DNA from: Enterobacteria phage IME10
Strand: one strand, 5' to 3'
Sequence record: JN600960.1
Length of the DNA stretch: 39,646 nt
Part shown: positions 2,923 to 23,742 of the stretch, piece by piece
Numbering within the stretch: the stretch's first letter is position 1
How the letters are laid out: every line of letters begins with the position of its first letter
The notes under the pieces: model-generated
The model's database searches: none
The model's input: the letters and a program-made list of their open reading frames with translations, nothing else
Told to the model about the DNA's origin: nothing
Made by a program: the position numbers and the translations under genes

Positions 2923-3615
2923 ATGTTATATGCATTTAAGCTGGGCAGAAAACTGCGCGGCGAGGAACCTTATTGCCCTGAAAAAGGCGGGAAAGGTGGC
3001 AGCTCTGATAAAAGCGCAAAGTATGCAGCAGAAGCTCAGAAGTATGCCGCAGACCTGCAAAATCAGCAGTGGCAGACGATCATGAAAAACCTTGCTCCGT
3101 TCACGCCTCTTGCGGAGCAGTATGTTAACCAGCTTCAGAACCTTTCCAGTTTAGAAGGTCAGGGGCAGGCACTTAATCAGTATTACAACTCTCAGCAGTA
3201 TAAAGACCTTGCAGGTCAGGCTCGTTACCAGAGTCTTGCTGCTGCGGAGGCGACGGGGGGACTTGGTTCGACAGCCACAAGCAATCAACTGGCTACGATC
3301 GCGCCGACTCTCGGTCAGTCTTGGTTATCAAACCAGATGAGCAATTACAACAATCTGGCAAACGTTGGTCTTGGTGCTCTGCAAGGTCAGGCAAACGCTG
3401 GGCAGACATACGCCAACAACATGAGCAGCATTGCACAGCAAAGTGCAGCACTTGCCGCTGCTAATGCCAATAAACCATCAAGTCTTCAGACTGCAATTAG
3501 CGGTGGCACGTCTGGTGCGATTGCCGGTGCAGGTCTTGCCAGTCTTTTGGGAACATCAACGCCTTGGGGCGCTGGCATTGGTGCTGGTATCGGATTGCTT
3601 GGCTCGTTGTTTTAA
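2923..3615 (+). CDS. Ejection (internal virion) protein gp7
   Basis: 230 aa ORF with Gln/Ala/Gly-rich low-complexity C-terminus, P22 gp7 length and position. Confidence 0.75.
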   Translation: MLYAFKLGRKLRGEEPYCPEKGGKGGSSDKSAKYAAEAQKYAADLQNQQWQTIMKNLAPFTPLAEQYVNQLQNLSSLEGQGQALNQYYNSQQYKDLAGQARYQSLAAAEATGGLGSTATSNQLATIAPTLGQSWLSNQMSNYNNLANVGLGALQGQANAGQTYANNMSSIAQQSAALAAANANKPSSLQTAISGGTSGAIAGAGLASLLGTSTPWGAGIGAGIGLLGSLF

Positions 3616-3624
3616 GGGGTAATC

Positions 3625-4956
3625 ATGGCTACTTGGCAAGGAACAAACGGCGGATTGTTGGCTGGTATCGGCGGCGTCAACTCAAACGCTCCGAGCGTAA
3701 ATGACATCGGCAATACGCTTCAGCTTATCAGGCAGAACAATGATATTGAGCGTTCAGGCGCTAACAATGTTGGGCTGACTGCTTTGCAAGGCCTTTCAGG
3801 TATTGCGGGGGTGTTTCAGCAGGAAAAGCAGGCTCAGCGGCAGAAAGAATTTCAGCAGGCATACGCTAATGCTTATGCGTCTGGTGATCGCGGTGCTTTG
3901 CGTCAGTTGGCTACTCAATATCCAGACCAGATTGAATCCGTTCGTAAAGGCATGGGATTCATTGATGAAGAGCAGCGTAATTCTATCGGCACCTTAGCAG
4001 CTGGCGCACGCCTTGCGTCATCGTCTCCAGAAGCAATGCAATCATGGCTGCAAAACAACGCCGGTGAGTTAGATCGTGTTGGCGTTAATCCTCATGACGT
4101 CGCTCAGATGTACCAACAGAACCCGCGGCAGTTCGGCGAATTTGTCGATCACCTGGGGATGAACAGTCTCGGGCCCGAAAAATACTTTGACCTACAGGAT
4201 AAAATGCAGGGTCGCCAGGTTACCATGCGCGGTCAGGATCTGGATTCGCAAACCGCCGCTCGGAATCAGGCAATCACAATGCGCGGACAAGATATCCAGG
4301 CGGATTTAGGTCAGCAGCGCATTAATCTGGACGCAGAAACAAACCGCATTAACAACGAAAATAAGCGCCTTGACCGGATGCTATCAGCAGAAACTAACGA
4401 CCTGAAGCGCCAGGAAATACAGAGCCGCATAGCAGCCAACAACCAGCAGTTGCAGCAGAAGCAGCAAGCGCTAAATGATGGCTACAAAGACGGCATCAAC
4501 ACCCTCACAACCAGCATGTTCACTCTGAACGATATCGTTAGTTCTCCTTCACTTAAGAGCATTACAGGCTTACGTGGAGTAATCCCCAACGTTCCAGGCT
4601 CACAGGCTGCAGACACTCAGGCACGACTTGATACCTTTAAATCACAAGCATACCTGACAGCGGTTCAGGCCATGCGAGGCATGGGCGCACTTTCTGATGC
4701 CGAGGGCAAAAAGCTCGACCAGGCTGTTGGTTCGCTGCAGAACTCGCAGAGCGAGGAGTCCTTTCGTCGCAACGCTGGCGTCATCCTGAACACGCTCAAC
4801 CAGAAGCGTAATGAGGCGGTTGGTAAGTACGTTCAGCAAAACGGTATCAAGCGAGTGGAAGCGCCTCAGGCTTCTATAGATTACCTGAAGCAGCACCCCG
4901 AGCTGTCAATCGACTTCATTAATCGCTACGGATATCTTCCATCTTTGGGGCAGTAA
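3625..4956 (+). CDS. Ejection protein gp20
   Basis: 443 aa ORF between gp7 and gp16 homologs, coiled-coil-rich. Confidence 0.7.
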   Translation: MATWQGTNGGLLAGIGGVNSNAPSVNDIGNTLQLIRQNNDIERSGANNVGLTALQGLSGIAGVFQQEKQAQRQKEFQQAYANAYASGDRGALRQLATQYPDQIESVRKGMGFIDEEQRNSIGTLAAGARLASSSPEAMQSWLQNNAGELDRVGVNPHDVAQMYQQNPRQFGEFVDHLGMNSLGPEKYFDLQDKMQGRQVTMRGQDLDSQTAARNQAITMRGQDIQADLGQQRINLDAETNRINNENKRLDRMLSAETNDLKRQEIQSRIAANNQQLQQKQQALNDGYKDGINTLTTSMFTLNDIVSSPSLKSITGLRGVIPNVPGSQAADTQARLDTFKSQAYLTAVQAMRGMGALSDAEGKKLDQAVGSLQNSQSEESFRRNAGVILNTLNQKRNEAVGKYVQQNGIKRVEAPQASIDYLKQHPELSIDFINRYGYLPSLGQ

Positions 4957-7733: not shown

Positions 7734-7773
7734 CGTAACCTACTGGATAAATACTCAATAGTACCATTTCGGT

Positions 7774-7796
7774 ATGCAATCACATCATGATTGCAT
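7774..7796. promoter_or_regulatory. Candidate Mnt operator: perfect 9-bp inverted repeat ATGCAATCA-N5-TGATTGCAT
   Basis: Palindrome read directly in the mnt-tailspike intergenic region, about 25 bp upstream of the tailspike start. Confidence 0.4.
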
Positions 7797-7821: not shown

Positions 7822-9642
7822 ATGTCAGATATCACCGCAAATGTTGTGGTAAGCATGCCTTCGCAACTATTCACTATGGCGCGTTCTTTTAAAGCCGTAG
7901 CCAATGGAAAAATTTATATCGGTAAAATTGACACTGACCCGGTAAATCCTGAAAACCAGATTCAGGTTTATGTGGAAAACGAAGACGGTTCTCACGTTCC
8001 TGTTGCACAGCCAATCATCATTAACGCTGCTGGTTACCCTGTATATAATGGACAGATTGCCAAATTCGTAACTGTGCAAGGCCATTCGATGGCTGTATAC
8101 GATGCGTATGGTGTGCAGCAGTTTTATTACCCGAATGTGCTGAAGTATGACCCTGATCAGTTGGAGCAACGATTGTCTTCACCTGGTGGCGCAGTGTATA
8201 TAGGTGGCGTTGGTGGTGGAAATTTATCCCAAATAATAAATGCGGTATCTCCAGAACAGTTCGGAGCAGTAGGAGACGGATTCACTGATGATATTGAAGC
8301 TCTCGATGCTTGCATGGCTTTTGCGAGAGAAAAACCATTAGACATTATATTTAGTAAGACATACGCAATTTCACGTCCTTATGTTATTTACATGGGAAAT
8401 AAAAAAAATCCTCGCCATATTGGTCAAGGGTCCATGGCGAAAATAATATTAACCACAACAACAAAATCTGGATTGGGTAGTGACTCATACGGTACTGATT
8501 TGAATGTAAACGCAGCTGTTATTGTAGCCGCGATCACAGGTACAGGGCATAACCAACAACCCCAGAACTTTCGGTGGGAAAACATTGACCTTGACACCAC
8601 TGTAGATGCAGATTACGGCATGTACACGTCAAAAATGCAGTCCGCGGCAGTCAGTAATTTCAGGACGTATAATTTCAAGACAGGTATTCAGGATAACGGT
8701 TCCTGGAATACGTTGTATGAAAACATTAAGATGTCTGCCCACTCCACCGTAGGTTTCCGTAAAAATGCTGGTACTAGTACTACTATCCGTAACTGTTACG
8801 TAGAGAAATCGAAAGTTGGTTATCGTGTTTACAGCGGATACTCTCAGATTGAAGGGTGTGCATGCGACACTAGCACTGATGTCTCGTATTGGATTGAAGG
8901 TAACCCAGTAGCTTTAAGTAGTGACAGCACGTTTTCTCTTGTGTCATGTGGCGCAGAGAATTCAGGGACGGCCGTGGTACGAATTACTGGGACACTAACA
9001 GCAAGTATTATCAACTTTCAATCATTTAATTGGTCACAACAGCAAGACCCGACACCAGATTGTTTCTTAGATATTCAGTCCAACACTGCTAGCATTTCAG
9101 TTGAAGAGGTCAGATATCTTGGTGTTGCTCGCAGGATAAAAGACACTGGAACAAACAACACAGTTATCATAAGAAATATGACGACTCGTGGTACAGATGT
9201 TAGAGATCAGGATACCTATCCAAATAGCACTAGAATTATTGAGCTTAATCATAACGGTGTGCGAGTAGCGACAGGTTACGATAAAAATGGGATTTTGATC
9301 ACTGAAGATAATATGACCGATTCAATCGGAAGTACTACATGGTCAAGGCTATTTAACAAACAAAAAATTTGGCGCTATAGGGGTATAGTAACAAGAACAA
9401 GCGGTCAGAGTTACGGAAGGTTACAGATCAATATTCCGTTCACTATGGCTGATAATAGTTATAGCGTTGCTATTACACCAGAAGTGTATCACACCGATAT
9501 GGCAACATATGGTTACCAATGTTCAGTAGGCCCAACTGATAAAACAACAACATCATTCTTCATCAACGTAAACTCTGGAACAGGTAACACGTCATGGAAC
9601 AGTATAGCTGTTGACGTAATTGTGATGGGGCTTTCTATCTAA
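7822..9642 (+). CDS. Tailspike protein: P22-type N-terminal head-binding domain plus a different beta-helix receptor-binding domain
   Basis: Start [11 protein letters not shown] with GGAG RBS 7 nt upstream; first ~115 aa closely resemble the P22 gp9 N-terminus as recalled; remainder differs and contains the [11 protein letters not shown] motif typical of pectate-lyase-like beta-helix depolymerases. Confidence 0.85.
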
Positions 9643-19311: not shown

Positions 19312-20280
19312 TTAGTAGGTTATTTTTGTTGCGAATACTTCGCCTTTTACGATGGCTGTTATGATATTTTTAGCAACATCTTCTGATGCGCCAACCTTGA
19401 TAAGGTCAGCAAGTATTTTGTTATTTACTTCTTTCCGGTGAGCTTTATCCTTTGCTCTACGCTCTTCTTCGTCCTTGATTCTTTTTTCTTCTGCTATTCT
19501 GGCTTGCTCTTTTGCTTCAGCCTCGCGACGGATTCGTTCAGCCTCCTCCTGTGCTTTTCTGCGTTCTGCTTCAATTGCTGCCTGCTTTTCTCTTTCAGCT
19601 CGTTCTGCTGCCTCTTTTGCTTCGCGCTGTGCTCGTTGCTCGGCTTCAATGCGTTCACGCTCTGCACGTTCCGCTGCTGCCTTAGCTTCTGCTTCTCGCC
19701 TTGCCGCTGCTTCAATTTCGGCTTTTGCCTTTGCTTCGGCTTCTGCTCTGGCTTTCTCTTCAGCTTCTCTTTTTAAGCGTTCTTCATGCTCTCGCTTTTC
19801 CTGCTCCGCTTTGAGTCTTGCCTCTTCTCTTTGGCGGTCAAATTCGCGATCCATCAAAATCGCTATTTCATGGTCAGACTCAATTTGCTTTGCGAGAGCT
19901 TCAGCTGCTGCCTTAGCTTCTTCTTCGGCTTTAATCCGCGCCTGTTCTTCCTCATAATCAGTAAGAGGCTGGCGTGCCTTGGCTTTCAGCTCATCAAGGC
20001 GATCACGCACTGTCTTGCGGTTGGCATCAATGAGCTTTGGAATTTCCTTCAGTTCAGCAACAAGGTCTTTGCCAAGACCATCGAGATATGTTTTCGTCTG
20101 CGCAACTTTATACGCCAGAGAAGCGATCTCCTTTCTGCCCTTTGCCGTTGTGATATCAGGCACAAAGGACATAACTTCACGTTCAACCTTTTGAAGGATT
20201 TCTTCAATCTGGTCGGCAGACTGAAATACAGTCATTGCATTTGCTTTTTCAATAACAACTAAATCTGTTACTTCACTCAT
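19312..20280 (-). CDS. Coiled-coil protein with Glu/Arg/Ala-rich low-complexity core (322 aa)
   Basis: Long ORF with GGAGGA RBS; central ~150 aa of EAKAKAE/RREAE-type repeats; conserved-looking N- and C-terminal ends. Confidence 0.6.
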   Translation of the reverse strand: MSEVTDLVVIEKANAMTVFQSADQIEEILQKVEREVMSFVPDITTAKGRKEIASLAYKVAQTKTYLDGLGKDLVAELKEIPKLIDANRKTVRDRLDELKAKARQPLTDYEEEQARIKAEEEAKAAAEALAKQIESDHEIAILMDREFDRQREEARLKAEQEKREHEERLKREAEEKARAEAEAKAKAEIEAAARREAEAKAAAERAERERIEAEQRAQREAKEAAERAEREKQAAIEAERRKAQEEAERIRREAEAKEQARIAEEKRIKDEEERRAKDKAHRKEVNNKILADLIKVGASEDVAKNIITAIVKGEVFATKITY

Positions 20281-20292
20281 ATATCCTCCGTC

Positions 20293-20319
20293 AAAAAAAT
20301 GCCCTCACACTGGAGGGCA
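20293..20319 (-). terminator. Intrinsic terminator (tL-like)
   Basis: Minus strand GCCCTC-CAGTGTG-AGGGC followed by ATTTTTTT. Confidence 0.55.
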
Positions 20320-20437
20320 AAGAAGATTTCAAATAATCATAACAAGTCGGCTCCTGTTTAGTTACGAGCGACATTGCTCCGTGTATTCACTCGTTGGAAT
20401 GAATACACAGTGCAGTGTTTATTCTGTTGTTTATGCC

Positions 20438-20462
20438 AAAAATAAAGGCCGACTATGCGGCC
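20438..20462 (-). terminator. Intrinsic terminator downstream of the 62-aa gene
   Basis: Minus strand GGCCGCATAGTCGGCC followed by TTTATTTTT. Confidence 0.5.
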
Positions 20463-20467
20463 ATCAC

Positions 20468-20656
20468 TTAAATTTCCTTCCATCCCCAATCAAGCGTTTC
20501 AAATGCTATATCACGCATGTTTTCGTCTTTTTCGTCCTGATCCATTTCATTCCACTCATTCTCGGATAAGCCAAGATCACCGAGTGTTACAACTGTCTTT
20601 TTGCAAGAGTGAATGTTTGCGCCGGAATCCAACCAAATTTCAAATTTACGTTCCAT
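20468..20656 (-). CDS. Small acidic protein (62 aa), unknown function
   Basis: ORF with GAGGTGA RBS directly downstream of N. Confidence 0.5.
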   Translation of the reverse strand: MERKFEIWLDSGANIHSCKKTVVTLGDLGLSENEWNEMDQDEKDENMRDIAFETLDWGWKEI

Positions 20657-20664
20657 ATATCACC

Positions 20665-20964
20665 TCAAATAAGTGGTTTGCTGCCTAATTTCATTTTCTG
20701 GCGACCAACACAAGTCACACCCATTTCACTGCGTGGCTTGCGGTAGTAAATACGGTTCTGTTTACGCTCGACTTCTTCTGCCTTCTTGCAGCGAAGGATT
20801 CCGAGTGATGCTGCTTTATCTGCTCTGACGCAACCAGAGAGCTTTAGCGCAATTTTTCGTGCCAATCGCTGTTCTTGCATTGCCTGTTCACGTTGAGCCT
20901 GTCTGCGTGCTCTGCGGCGATTTCTGGCGTTATCGTCAGCCAGATATGTAATGACTACTGTCAT
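20665..20964 (-). CDS. N: N-like transcription antiterminator (P22 gene 24 analogue)
   Basis: First gene of the PL operon; N-terminal arginine-rich motif NARNRRRARRQAQRE; MTVVITY start resembles P22 gp24 as recalled; GGAGG RBS. Confidence 0.7.
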   Translation of the reverse strand: MTVVITYLADDNARNRRRARRQAQREQAMQEQRLARKIALKLSGCVRADKAASLGILRCKKAEEVERKQNRIYYRKPRSEMGVTCVGRQKMKLGSKPLI

Positions 20965-21158
20965 GTTGACCTCCGATGATTGACTTTGGTGATTGGATGG
21001 CCGGTGCTGAATTCCGGCTTACTGGTTAGAGCGCCCGCACTACCAGTGACGCTGTCTTGAGGCGCAGATTGGTTACTGCTTGCCATGAGCGCTGTTTATA
21101 CATTGGTCGAGCATCAGCCTGCTCATTCATCCAATCCCAAAGCCAACTACTCTTTGGT

Positions 21159-21199
21159 TCCCGCATTTCGGCGGGACAATCCCATCAATGTTAAAGAGC
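21159..21199 (-). promoter_or_regulatory. nutL (boxA GCTCTTTAAC and boxB hairpin)
   Basis: Minus-strand boxA at 21190-21199 and boxB UCCCGCCGAAAUGCGGGA at 21159-21176; both elements are identical to the nutR copies. Confidence 0.65.
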
Positions 21200-21245
21200 C
21201 TGCCAACCTGTTCCGTTTGGCTACCAGCGTCCTGCTGATGGCTTA

Positions 21246-21274
21246 AATTTAAGATCTCTTTAATTAATGGTCAA
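21246..21274 (-). promoter_or_regulatory. PL promoter with overlapping OL operator
   Basis: Minus strand TTGACC, 17-nt spacer, TAAATT; operator-like ATTTAAGATCTCTTTAAT overlaps it. Confidence 0.5.
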
Positions 21275-21342
21275 GAGTATTTTTGAAGAAAACTTAAATT
21301 TTCTTTCGTAACTTAAGTTTGGCTTTGATTTTTAAAGGAAAT

Positions 21343-21365
21343 AAAAAAAAGGGGCGAATGCCCCC
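21343..21365 (-). terminator. Intrinsic terminator immediately after c2
   Basis: Minus strand GGGGGCATTCGCCCC followed by T8. Confidence 0.6.
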
Positions 21366-22016
21366 TTATGGAAGGTTTGCTAGTTTTGCATCGACAACTA
21401 CGCCGATGATTTTGCAGTTTCCGTTGATCTCGATCATCGGATATTGTGGGTTAAGTGGTTTTAGAAACTTCCTGCCTGCATCAATAACTAACTTCTTGAA
21501 AGTTGCCTCGTTTTCTCCTTCGAGCTTTGCAACTACCAGTTTCCCGTTACGCGGCTCTACTTCAGGATCGACGAGTATTATCATTCCTTCAGGGATACTG
21601 AGACCGGCCGGAGCCGTCATTGAGTCTCCCTTCACGTCCAACCAAAACGAATCTTCTGAACAGTCTACGGTTGTATCGTACCAGTTATCTATTGCACGCT
21701 TATGATATGGTTCTACAGCTTCCATCCAGCATCCTGCGCTCACCCAGCTAATCAGAGGGTATGACCCTCTTGGATCATGCCTACTGTGATAGGCAATGTT
21801 TGAAAGACTTTCCTCTCCTTTCATCAGATAGTCAGGGGAACACTTCAACGCATTAGCCAGGGCGAGAAGATTCTCTCCATTTGGCTCTGTCTCAGAGCGT
21901 TCCCACTGAGATATGGCAACATTAGACACGCCGACCATCTTTCCAAGTGCGGCCTGCCTGATCTTGAGTTCTTTTCTCCGAGCGCGAATGCGCTCTCCCA
22001 TCAATTGAGTTTTCAT
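21366..22016 (-). CDS. c2: c2 repressor (lambda cI analogue; HTH plus LexA-like cleavage domain)
   Basis: 216 aa; near-identical to P22 C2 as I recall it (QAALGKMVGVSNVAISQWERSETEPNGENLLAL...GDSM...KLVVAKL). Confidence 0.95.
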   Translation of the reverse strand: MKTQLMGERIRARRKELKIRQAALGKMVGVSNVAISQWERSETEPNGENLLALANALKCSPDYLMKGEESLSNIAYHSRHDPRGSYPLISWVSAGCWMEAVEPYHKRAIDNWYDTTVDCSEDSFWLDVKGDSMTAPAGLSIPEGMIILVDPEVEPRNGKLVVAKLEGENEATFKKLVIDAGRKFLKPLNPQYPMIEINGNCKIIGVVVDAKLANLP

Positions 22017-22020
22017 AGTT

Positions 22021-22082
22021 AAGACATCTTAAATAAACTTGACTTAAGATTCCTTTAGTGGATAATTTAAGTGTTCTTTAAT
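22021..22082. promoter_or_regulatory. OR operator region (OR1-OR3) with PR (-35 TTGACT 22039-22044, -10 GATAAT 22061-22066) and divergent PRM
   Basis: P22-type operator ATTTAAGTGTTCTTTAAT at 22065-22082 plus two related copies upstream; promoter hexamers with 16-nt spacing. Confidence 0.7.
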
Positions 22083-22096
22083 TTCGGAGCGAGTCT

Positions 22097-22282
22097 ATGT
22101 ACAAGAAAGATGTTATCGACCACTTCGGAACCCAGCGTGCTGTAGCTAAAGCGTTAGGCATTAGCGACGCAGCAGTCTCTCAGTGGAAGGAAGTCATCCC
22201 AGAGAAAGACGCCTATCGACTGGAAGTCGTTACAGCTGGCGCCCTGAAGTATCAAGAAAGCGCTTACCGCAAAGCGGCATAA
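22097..22282 (+). CDS. cro: Cro repressor
   Basis: 61 aa with HTH QRAVAKALGISDAAVSQW; divergent from c2 across OR. Confidence 0.9.
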   Translation: MYKKDVIDHFGTQRAVAKALGISDAAVSQWKEVIPEKDAYRLEVVTAGALKYQESAYRKAA

Positions 22283-22289
22283 GCAAATT

Positions 22290-22332
22290 GCTCTTTAACA
22301 GTCATGGTCCTCATTCCCGCCGAAATGCGGGA
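22290..22332 (+). promoter_or_regulatory. nutR (boxA GCTCTTTAAC and boxB hairpin)
   Basis: boxA at 22290-22299 and boxB UCCCGCCGAAAUGCGGGA at 22315-22332, identical to the nutL copies. Confidence 0.65.
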
Positions 22333-22390
22333 ATACAACGCGCATAAGTTGATGCGCATAACTTCTTATTTGTTAAGGAAATACTTACAT

Positions 22391-22669
22391 ATGGAACTTA
22401 CAAGTACTCGCAAGAAAGCGAATGCAATTACAAGCAACATCCTGAATCGAATTGCTGTACGTGGCCAGCGAAAGGTTGCCGACGCATTAGGGATCAATGA
22501 ATCGCAAATTTCGCGATGGAAAGACAGCTTTATCCCAAAGATGGCCATGCTTCTGGCTGTTCTTGAATGGGGTGTTGAAGACGAGGAGTTGGCTGAACTG
22601 GCTAAGAAAGTAGCCAGAATGCTGGCAAAAGAAAAAGCCCCGAAGAACGGCGAATTCTTCGAGGCCTGA
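22391..22669 (+). CDS. c1: c1 protein (lambda cII analogue), transcriptional activator
   Basis: 92 aa from the ATG at 22391; GINESQISRWKDSFIPKMAMLLAVLEWGV matches lambda CII / P22 C1 as recalled; the longer track ORF from 22304 would swallow nutR. Confidence 0.85.
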   Translation: MELTSTRKKANAITSNILNRIAVRGQRKVADALGINESQISRWKDSFIPKMAMLLAVLEWGVEDEELAELAKKVARMLAKEKAPKNGEFFEA

Positions 22670-22703
22670 TGTAGAAAGACTGGATCAATCCACAGGAGTA
22701 ATT

Positions 22704-22865
22704 ATGACAAAACGTCGTAAGAAATACCAGGAAAAAGAAGAGATTCGACACCCTGATTCACCTGAGGGATTAGTGGTAGCCGCAGCAAATAACAGGGCGT
22801 TCGCAGAGCGCCTTGTTGGTGTTTACAGACTAGCCAAAGCAGGAGTGAAACATGGGCGTCGTTAA
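22704..22865 (+). CDS. Small basic ORF (53 aa), unknown
   Basis: ATG with AGGAG RBS; below the ORF-track cutoff; overlaps the upstream extension of the replication gene. Confidence 0.3.
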   Translation: MTKRRKKYQEKEEIRHPDSPEGLVVAAANNRAFAERLVGVYRLAKAGVKHGRR

Positions 22866-22912
22866 GTTAGCTGATTACAGGCATAACCCTGTACAACATC
22901 AGGAGGCATCCA

Positions 22913-23742
22913 GTATGGGGTATGTCTCTATACACCGCCAGTTTATGGACAGCAGGCTCTATAAGGACTCTCAGGCAGTACATCTTTGGCTTCACTTAAT
23001 CCTCAAGGCTAATCACGAATCTACTGTCGTCAATACGGATATCGGGCCGATAACTGTTGATCGCGGTCAGATGATAACTGGACGCCCGTCGCTGGTCAGA
23101 GAAACATTCATCCCCGACAACAAAGTTCGGAGCTTATTGCGGACTTTTGAGTCGAAAGGGATGCTTAATATTTGCTCGATGGGGAAGAAATTTAGCCTGT
23201 TTACAATCGTTAAATATGACGATTTTCAGGCAAAAAATTGTCCAACGGTTGTCCAACGGTTGTCCAACGCAAACACCAGTAATGGCGCGGCTCTCAGCGG
23301 AGATTGTCCAACGGTTGTCCAACGGTTGTCCATAAACAATAATATAAATAATATCTCTAATACTGACGTATTAGAGAGTGCCACAGCAGACAAAAAGTCT
23401 GACAAGAAAAAACCTTCCGTTAGCTGTCAGGATGTTGTCGATGCTTACCACGAAATCCTTCCTGAAGCGCCAAAAATCCGCGCACTGAATGACAAGCGTA
23501 AAAACCAGATCCGAACGTTCTGGCGCAAAGCCGGAGTGATAACCCGCCAGCTTGACGGGCATGGGTTCACGATGCAGGACTGGAGAAATTATTTGAGCTA
23601 CGTAGGCGAAAATTGCCGATGGATGTTCGAAGAGCGTCCAAACCATCAACGCGGAACCGTCTGGCACAAAAAGGGATTTGATTTCCTGCTTAACGATAAT
23701 ACCTACCTGAAAGTTCGTGAGGGTGAACACGATGACCGATAA
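22913..23742 (+). CDS. Replication initiator (lambda O / P22 gene 18 analogue) containing ori iterons
   Basis: AGGAGG RBS before MGYVSIHRQ; iteron arrays encoded inside the ORF; followed by the helicase gene. Confidence 0.8.
23238..23334. repeat. Origin of replication: two clusters of three TTGTCCAACGG iterons followed by an AT-rich tract
   Basis: Iterons at 23238-23270 and 23305-23334 read directly; AT-rich AAACAATAATATAAATAATATC follows. Confidence 0.8.

Follow-up and report, generated by a model that had tools for sequence, protein, structure and literature searches.

HK620-type nutL and nutR sites and a chimeric N protein in the early region of Enterobacteria phage IME10

Two exact copies of an 18-nt sequence, TCCCGCCGAAATGCGGGA, are found in the genome of Enterobacteria phage IME10 (record JN600960.1; the whole stretch of 39,646 nucleotides, or 39.6 kb, that was analysed is called the window here). 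One copy lies at 21159-21176 on the (-) strand and the other at 22315-22332 on the (+) strand. The locus raises the question of whether these copies are the boxB hairpins of a nutL and a nutR site and, if so, which kind of N protein would recognize them. The original prediction proposed that both sites carry the same boxA and the same hairpin, with a 6-bp stem and a 6-nt CGAAAU loop, and that this non-canonical boxB implies an N specificity distinct from those of lambda and P22.

At ≤2 mismatches, the window contains no copy of the 18-mer beyond these two, and the 18-mer is absent from 100 dinucleotide-preserving shuffles of the window. The boxA sequence GCTCTTTAAC has exact matches at 21190-21199 (-) and 22290-22299 (+); the same sequence is annotated as boxA in phage 21 and in HK620, and at both sites it fits the CGCTCTT(T)A consensus. 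Since the spacers between boxA and boxB differ, being ATTGATGGGATTG (13 nt) in nutL and AGTCATGGTCCTCAT (15 nt) in nutR, what the two sites share is exactly boxA and the hairpin. RNA folding of the 18-mer yields a 6-bp stem and a 6-nt CGAAAU loop at -9.7 kcal/mol, and in nutR flanking bases lengthen the boxB stem to 8 bp (22313-22334). Thus, exact matches in the transcript sense at both sites bear out the shared boxA and 18-nt hairpin, and RNA folding bears out the stem and loop that had been proposed. On the basis of sequence, fold, and identity to the corresponding HK620 sites, we place nutL at 21159-21200 (-) and nutR, whose boxB core is the 18-mer at 22315-22332, at 22290-22334 (+). These hairpins were found by a dedicated hairpin scan; an inverted-repeat search with a minimum length of 10 misses arms of 6 bp. 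A Rfam scan of 19500-23500 with E values up to 10 returned chance-level matches, and Rfam is without a boxB or nut model.

As a perfect inverted repeat with GC-rich arms of 6 bp, the 18-mer might also be a palindromic protein-binding site that acts at the level of DNA, or an intrinsic terminator, rather than an RNA recognition hairpin. However, a U-tract is missing after both copies of the 18-mer, and neither of them is listed by the terminator scan. The operators for the repressor lie at PL and PR instead, and the hairpin is always coupled to boxA. Furthermore, in all 88 IMG/VR loci that have one copy per strand, the copies diverge at a distance of 1152-2990 bp, a range of spacings from which it follows that different immunity cassettes are flanked, and the asymmetric CGAAAT loop is always in the transcript sense, which a DNA palindrome would not need. 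The constant orientation of the loop with transcription therefore argues against a DNA-level palindromic site. Given this orientation and the missing U-tract, we rejected both the terminator and the DNA-operator readings of the 18-mer, which we consider barely credible.

The positions of the two copies among the early genes fit nutL and nutR. Leftward, the order is a PL-like promoter, nutL, N, a 62-aa ORF, and two terminator-like hairpins. The PL-like promoter (TTGACC-17-TAAATT; 21246-21274, (-)) was found by a promoter scan 47 nt upstream of the nutL boxA, at a position equivalent to that of the pL annotated in HK620 and phage 21. The N antiterminator gene (20665-20964, (-); 99 aa, ORF confirmed) is the first gene downstream of nutL. 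The two intrinsic-terminator-like hairpins with U-tracts, 20462->20447 and 20319->20300 (together 20300-20462, (-)), lie downstream of N and are candidates for tL. Rightward, the order is a PR-like promoter (TTGACT-16-GATAAT; 22039-22066, (+), from the promoter scan), cro (22097-22282, (+), with its stop codon 8 nt before nutR), nutR, and the cII/c1 activator gene (22392-22669, (+), with a likely true start at ATG 22392, as in HK620). Between the nut sites, the ORF map and comparison place a c2/cI-type repressor gene of the P22/phage-21 family (21366-22016, (-)). Thus, nutL lies between PL and N and nutR lies between cro and cII, and the gene order and promoter positions together put both hairpins at the canonical nutL and nutR positions, in the transcript sense. 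The logic is that of lambda and P22, with boxA, spacer, and boxB in each site, an N gene whose product bears an arginine-rich motif (ARM) downstream of nutL, and nutR between cro and cII.

Several other features of this region were observed. An in-frame ATG at 22304 opens a 121-aa ORF that takes in the nutR boxB and continues into cII (extension 22304-22391). The CUS-3 (3286-3666) and HK140 (140-505) records likewise place the cII start upstream, so that the CDS overlaps nutR, and HK620 cII is annotated as a short form of 92 aa with a start equivalent to ATG 22392; the long cII forms probably result from wrongly called starts. A little way into the cII ORF, TTGCTTGTAATTGC at 22424-22437 (-) matches the cII-binding consensus TTGCN6TTGC at a pRE-like position. 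A strong (-) terminator at the end of cII (22635-22667) occupies the position of the oop RNA terminator, and the Rfam match there is a weak one to ctRNA. Farther along, the O-like replication gene (22852-23742) contains two clusters, 66 bp apart, of three tandem 11-bp repeats, TTGTCCAACGG, at 23237-23343, which look like origin iterons comparable to those of lambda O/ori. In the early-left operon, a 322-aa ORF (19312-20280, (-)) has a very long, coiled-coil-like stretch rich in Glu, Ala, Lys, and Arg, and its counterpart in the mEp213 record is noted as similar to the Sf6 gene 33 protein.

In both leaders, a second 6-bp hairpin lies just 3' of the 18-mer, and it is conceivable that one of these is the true boxB and that the shared 18-mer has another role. 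The hairpin directly 3' of the nutL boxB is CCAAAG-9 nt-CUUUGG (21137-21157, (-)), and the one 3' of the nutR boxB is GCGCAU-AAGUUG-AUGCGC (22340-22357, (+)), about where HK620 has tR1. The boxB sequences of nutL and nutR are normally the same within one phage. However, the two second hairpins show no sequence relationship, and they stay as they are when the type of ARM in N changes: phage 21 has another ARM and yet retains part of the nutL one. This makes them unpromising as boxB. The 18-mer alone is common to both sites, takes the place that boxB has in phage 21, and, as described below, goes with the ARM from phage to phage. The idea that another leader hairpin, such as one of these, is the boxB is very improbable.

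Given that the 18-mer is the likely boxB, we compared it to the boxB hairpins of well-known phages. P22 boxB has a 5-bp stem and a 5-nt GACAA loop. Lambda boxB, as represented in mEp213, has a 5-bp stem and a 5-nt loop, GAAAA or GAAGA, whereas the window has 6 bp and 6 nt. Neither the lambda- nor the P22-type 15-nt hairpin, GCCCUGAARAAGGGC or GCGCUGACAAAGCGC, is present at the nut positions at ≤3 mismatches. The phage 21 record, OL657228, annotates boxA-L, a nutL stem-loop, boxA-R, and a nutR stem-loop, and its alignment with the window follows the same pattern at both sites: the two phages are nearly identical upstream of boxA and through boxA and the first spacer bases, but unrelated across the hairpin, at nutL and nutR alike. 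The phage 21 boxB has a 7-bp or 6-bp stem and the 6-nt loop CUAACC, whereas the window has the loop CGAAAU on an unrelated stem, and a phage-21-type boxB is absent from the window at ≤3 mismatches. The repressor, cro, and flanks of the two phages have about 89% DNA identity.

The closest match to the window sites is found in HK620, which is also a P22-like podophage of E. coli (Clark et al. 2001). The GenBank record of its 2001 genome, AF335538, lists "nutL; putative N-utilization leftward" at 7753-7794 and nutR at 9423-9468. The window is identical to HK620 nutL, GGCTCTTTAACATTGATGGGATTGTCCCGCCGAAATGCGGGA, over all 42 nt and to HK620 nutR, CGCTCTTTAACAGTCATGGTCCTCATTCCCGCCGAAATGCGGGAAT, from boxA onward; the base before the nutR boxA is T in the window and C in HK620. 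The same hairpin is also present in CUS-3, HK630, and HK140, and the records of the latter two annotate boxA parts. Because AF335538 annotates exactly the same boxA, spacer, and hairpin as nutL and nutR, HK620-type nut sites are already known and are not new. The description of the boxB as non-canonical thus holds in one respect, in that its stem and loop are unlike those of lambda and P22, and is overstated in another: a hexaloop boxB is not unusual, because the phage 21 boxB pairs a 6-nt loop with a stem of 6-7 bp, and the hairpin itself is annotated in HK620. The resemblance between the window and HK620 does not extend to the surroundings of the sites. The immunity cassette between the nut sites is of the P22/21-family c2-cro type in the window and of the 434/L-like cI-cro type in HK620, the nutL-to-N leaders differ in length, and the C-terminal third of N is a phage-21/lambda-type tail that binds RNA polymerase (RNAP) in the window and CSGSICLPNVAIYAAGYRKSKQLTAR in HK620.

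We then examined the N protein. Comparison to PHROG 271, "anti-termination protein N-like", gives an E value of 1e-36, and the C-terminal 38 residues match the tail with which lambda N binds RNAP in PDB 6GOV, at an E value of 1e-4; the Pfam N_peptide model scores 21.7 bits on this protein, under its gathering cut-off of 27.9. Residues 1-33 are identical to those of HK620 N at 33 of 33 positions and to those of phage 21 N at 6 of 33, and residues 34-99 are identical to phage 21 N at 63 of 66. Judged by these identities, N is a chimera of an HK620-type ARM module (1-33) and a phage-21/lambda-type C-terminal module (34-99). The ARM is NARNRRRARRQAQR. Codons 8-29 of N, which specify LADDNARNRRRARRQAQREQAM (20878-20943, (-)), are the positional equivalent of the phage 21 ARM peptide, whose complex with RNA has been solved (PDB 1NYB). 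The expected divergence of the arginine-rich motif in this N is therefore seen relative to phage 21 (6/33), along with full identity to HK620 (33/33). On the evidence of the same boxB and the identical ARM, the window sites belong to the HK620-type nut/N specificity class. The HK620-type ARM has no match in the PDB even at an E value of 10, and a literature string search with the ARM and the hairpin gave no relevant match. A tblastn search of phages with the 37-aa ARM alone also gave no match, probably as a result of low-complexity masking, as full-length N gave matches.

The window N shares with lambda N both a C-terminal RNAP-binding motif and the RRRxRR core of the ARM (the lambda ARM, MDAQTRRRERRAEKQAQW, was taken from the first N of mEp213). 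Together with the C-GAAA-U loop, which holds a GNRA tetranucleotide reminiscent of the lambda GAAAA and GAAGA loops, this common core leaves room for an alternative in which the sites are nut sites but the ARM does not constitute a separate specificity, being instead a lambda-like variant that cross-recognizes lambda-type boxB. We consider this unlikely. The stem sequence, the stem length, and the loop size are all unlike those of lambda, lambda-type boxB is absent at the nut positions, and the residue at the lambda Trp18 position of the window ARM is not aromatic. In addition, mEp213 has an HK620-type N alongside a lambda-type N that comes with a lambda nutL, and the presence of the two N types together suggests that lambda-type and HK620-type N proteins are not redundant.

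Natural recombinants of N also bear on the question of a separate specificity. In phage 21, the ARM and the C-terminus are both of the phage 21 type, and the boxB is of the phage-21 type at nutL and nutR. HK629 joins a phage 21 ARM (33/33) to an HK620 C-terminus (56/57), and its boxB at nutL and nutR is of the phage-21 type. In HK620, HK630, and HK140, the ARM and the C-terminus are both of the HK620 type, and the boxB at nutL and nutR is the UCCCGC-CGAAAU-GCGGGA hairpin. The window and CUS-3 join an HK620 ARM to a phage 21 C-terminus, and their boxB is again the UCCCGC-CGAAAU-GCGGGA hairpin. Since the reciprocal chimeras, HK629 on the one hand and the window and CUS-3 on the other, complete this two-by-two comparison, the boxB type follows the ARM and not the rest of N. 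This co-segregation supports, at the level of sequence comparison, the proposal that the N specificity is distinct from those of lambda and P22.

The IMG/VR relatives show the same association. We collected the 80 loci that were closest by N protein alone; as these are 96-99% identical, they show conservation and no diversity. In 77 of them a boxA lies upstream of N, and the invariant HK620-type hairpin is present at nutL in all 77 and visible at nutR in 75. The ARM is nearly invariant across the IMG/VR relatives. All N-like ORFs that adjoin the hairpin have the ARM YLADDNARNRRRARRQAQREQAM, apart from occasional single substitutions, and ARMs of this form are joined to at least four different C-terminal modules. 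We looked for covariation in the stem among the relatives and found none: in all those examined the hairpin is unchanged, so compensatory changes are absent. Taken together, these data provide strong comparative evidence that the HK620-type ARM and the hairpin are a matched pair.

The DNA between nutL and N is far more variable in length. The leader from boxA to the N ATG ranges from 148 to 605 nt in the 77 IMG/VR loci, and the 235-nt leader of the window (which includes 20965-21158) has a rare length, found in 2 of the 77. The CUS-3 record (CP000711) lists no nut features, and its nutL-N leader is longer than that of the window and is labelled "boundary sequence bsq5". The nutL-to-N leader looks like a hotspot for insertions and deletions. 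Like CUS-3, whose N is 98% identical, Escherichia phages Gally and N7 have the same chimeric N and the same nutR as the window. Across the N-c2-cro segment, identity to the window is about 99% for Gally, N7, CUS-3, and JEP4 and about 89% for phage 21. As a whole, the window is a mosaic P22-like E. coli podophage genome, with a structural half that is about 95% identical to Sf6, HF4s, and N7 over about half its length.

A different arrangement is seen in mEp213 (JQ182733; 700-2773 of the locus), which has two N genes. The first encodes the lambda-type N and comes with the lambda nutL, GCCCTGAAGAAGGGC. The second, of the HK620 type, lies about 1.5 kb further along the leftward transcript. It is still preceded by the part of the leader 3' of boxB, but by neither boxA nor boxB, and the HK620-type hairpin is absent from the 5-kb locus. 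This second N may be an orphan left by recombination, or may act on other phages.

We conclude that the two sites are very probably nutL and nutR sites with the HK620 type of specificity, which would serve N-dependent antitermination in a P22-like E. coli phage resembling Sf6, HK620, and CUS-3. By analogy with lambda, P22, and phage 21, the paradigm from which we infer antitermination, the part of the Nus factors in it, and the binding of boxB by the ARM, the PL and PR transcripts would each carry boxA, GCUCUUUAAC, followed by the UCCCGC-CGAAAU-GCGGGA boxB hairpin. The boxB RNA, UCCCGCCGAAAUGCGGGA, would be bound by the N-terminal arginine-rich helix of N, approximately residues 8-29, with a specificity that the co-segregation of ARM and boxB sequences suggests. 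NusB/NusE would be recruited by boxA, and the phage-21/lambda-like C-terminal part of N would contact NusA and RNA polymerase. The polymerase modified in this way would then pass the terminators downstream of N and of nutR.

Whether the HK620-type pair also differs in structure from the known ones is a more tentative matter. It is possible, although we put the chance at somewhat under even, that the HK620-type ARM and boxB represent a fourth, structurally distinct mode of N-peptide/RNA recognition. Because the RRRxRR core is shared with lambda N and the loop contains GAAA, a GNRA tetraloop can be imagined rather than a fold like that of the phage 21 hexaloop. One speculative form would be a GAAA tetraloop closed by a C-U mismatch and read by the ARM without the stack that Trp18 provides in lambda. 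The HK620-type pair may be orthogonal to the lambda, P22, and phage 21 pairs.

HK620-type sites and ARMs are widespread. More than 120 IMG/VR contigs contain this hairpin, with few exceptions as two divergent copies that bracket one of several different immunity cassettes, and a 346-bp probe that spans the ARM codons, the leader, and nutL matches 589 of 5426 complete E. coli genomes (approximately 11%). In a genome-contig search, in which spurious matches to the RQAQREQA pattern were abundant, two loci were confirmed, both with the same hairpins. In E. coli prophages, few N types are commoner than the one with the HK620-type ARM and boxB.

That N specificity can be swapped has been known since the 1980s from lambda, P22, and phage 21. 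N-terminal modules of N that set boxB specificity and are exchanged among lambdoid phages are a standard notion by now, described for example in the genome papers on phage L and epsilon34 (PMC8022706, PMC2629481). For phage IME10, the nut sites would explain, by analogy, how early transcription escapes termination, and beyond correct annotation their importance is small. They do provide a clean natural example of an N specificity that resides in a swappable ARM module and travels with its two boxB hairpins. If the HK620-type pair does use a distinct recognition mode, it would add one more orthogonal tethering pair and a data point on how ARMs are retargeted.
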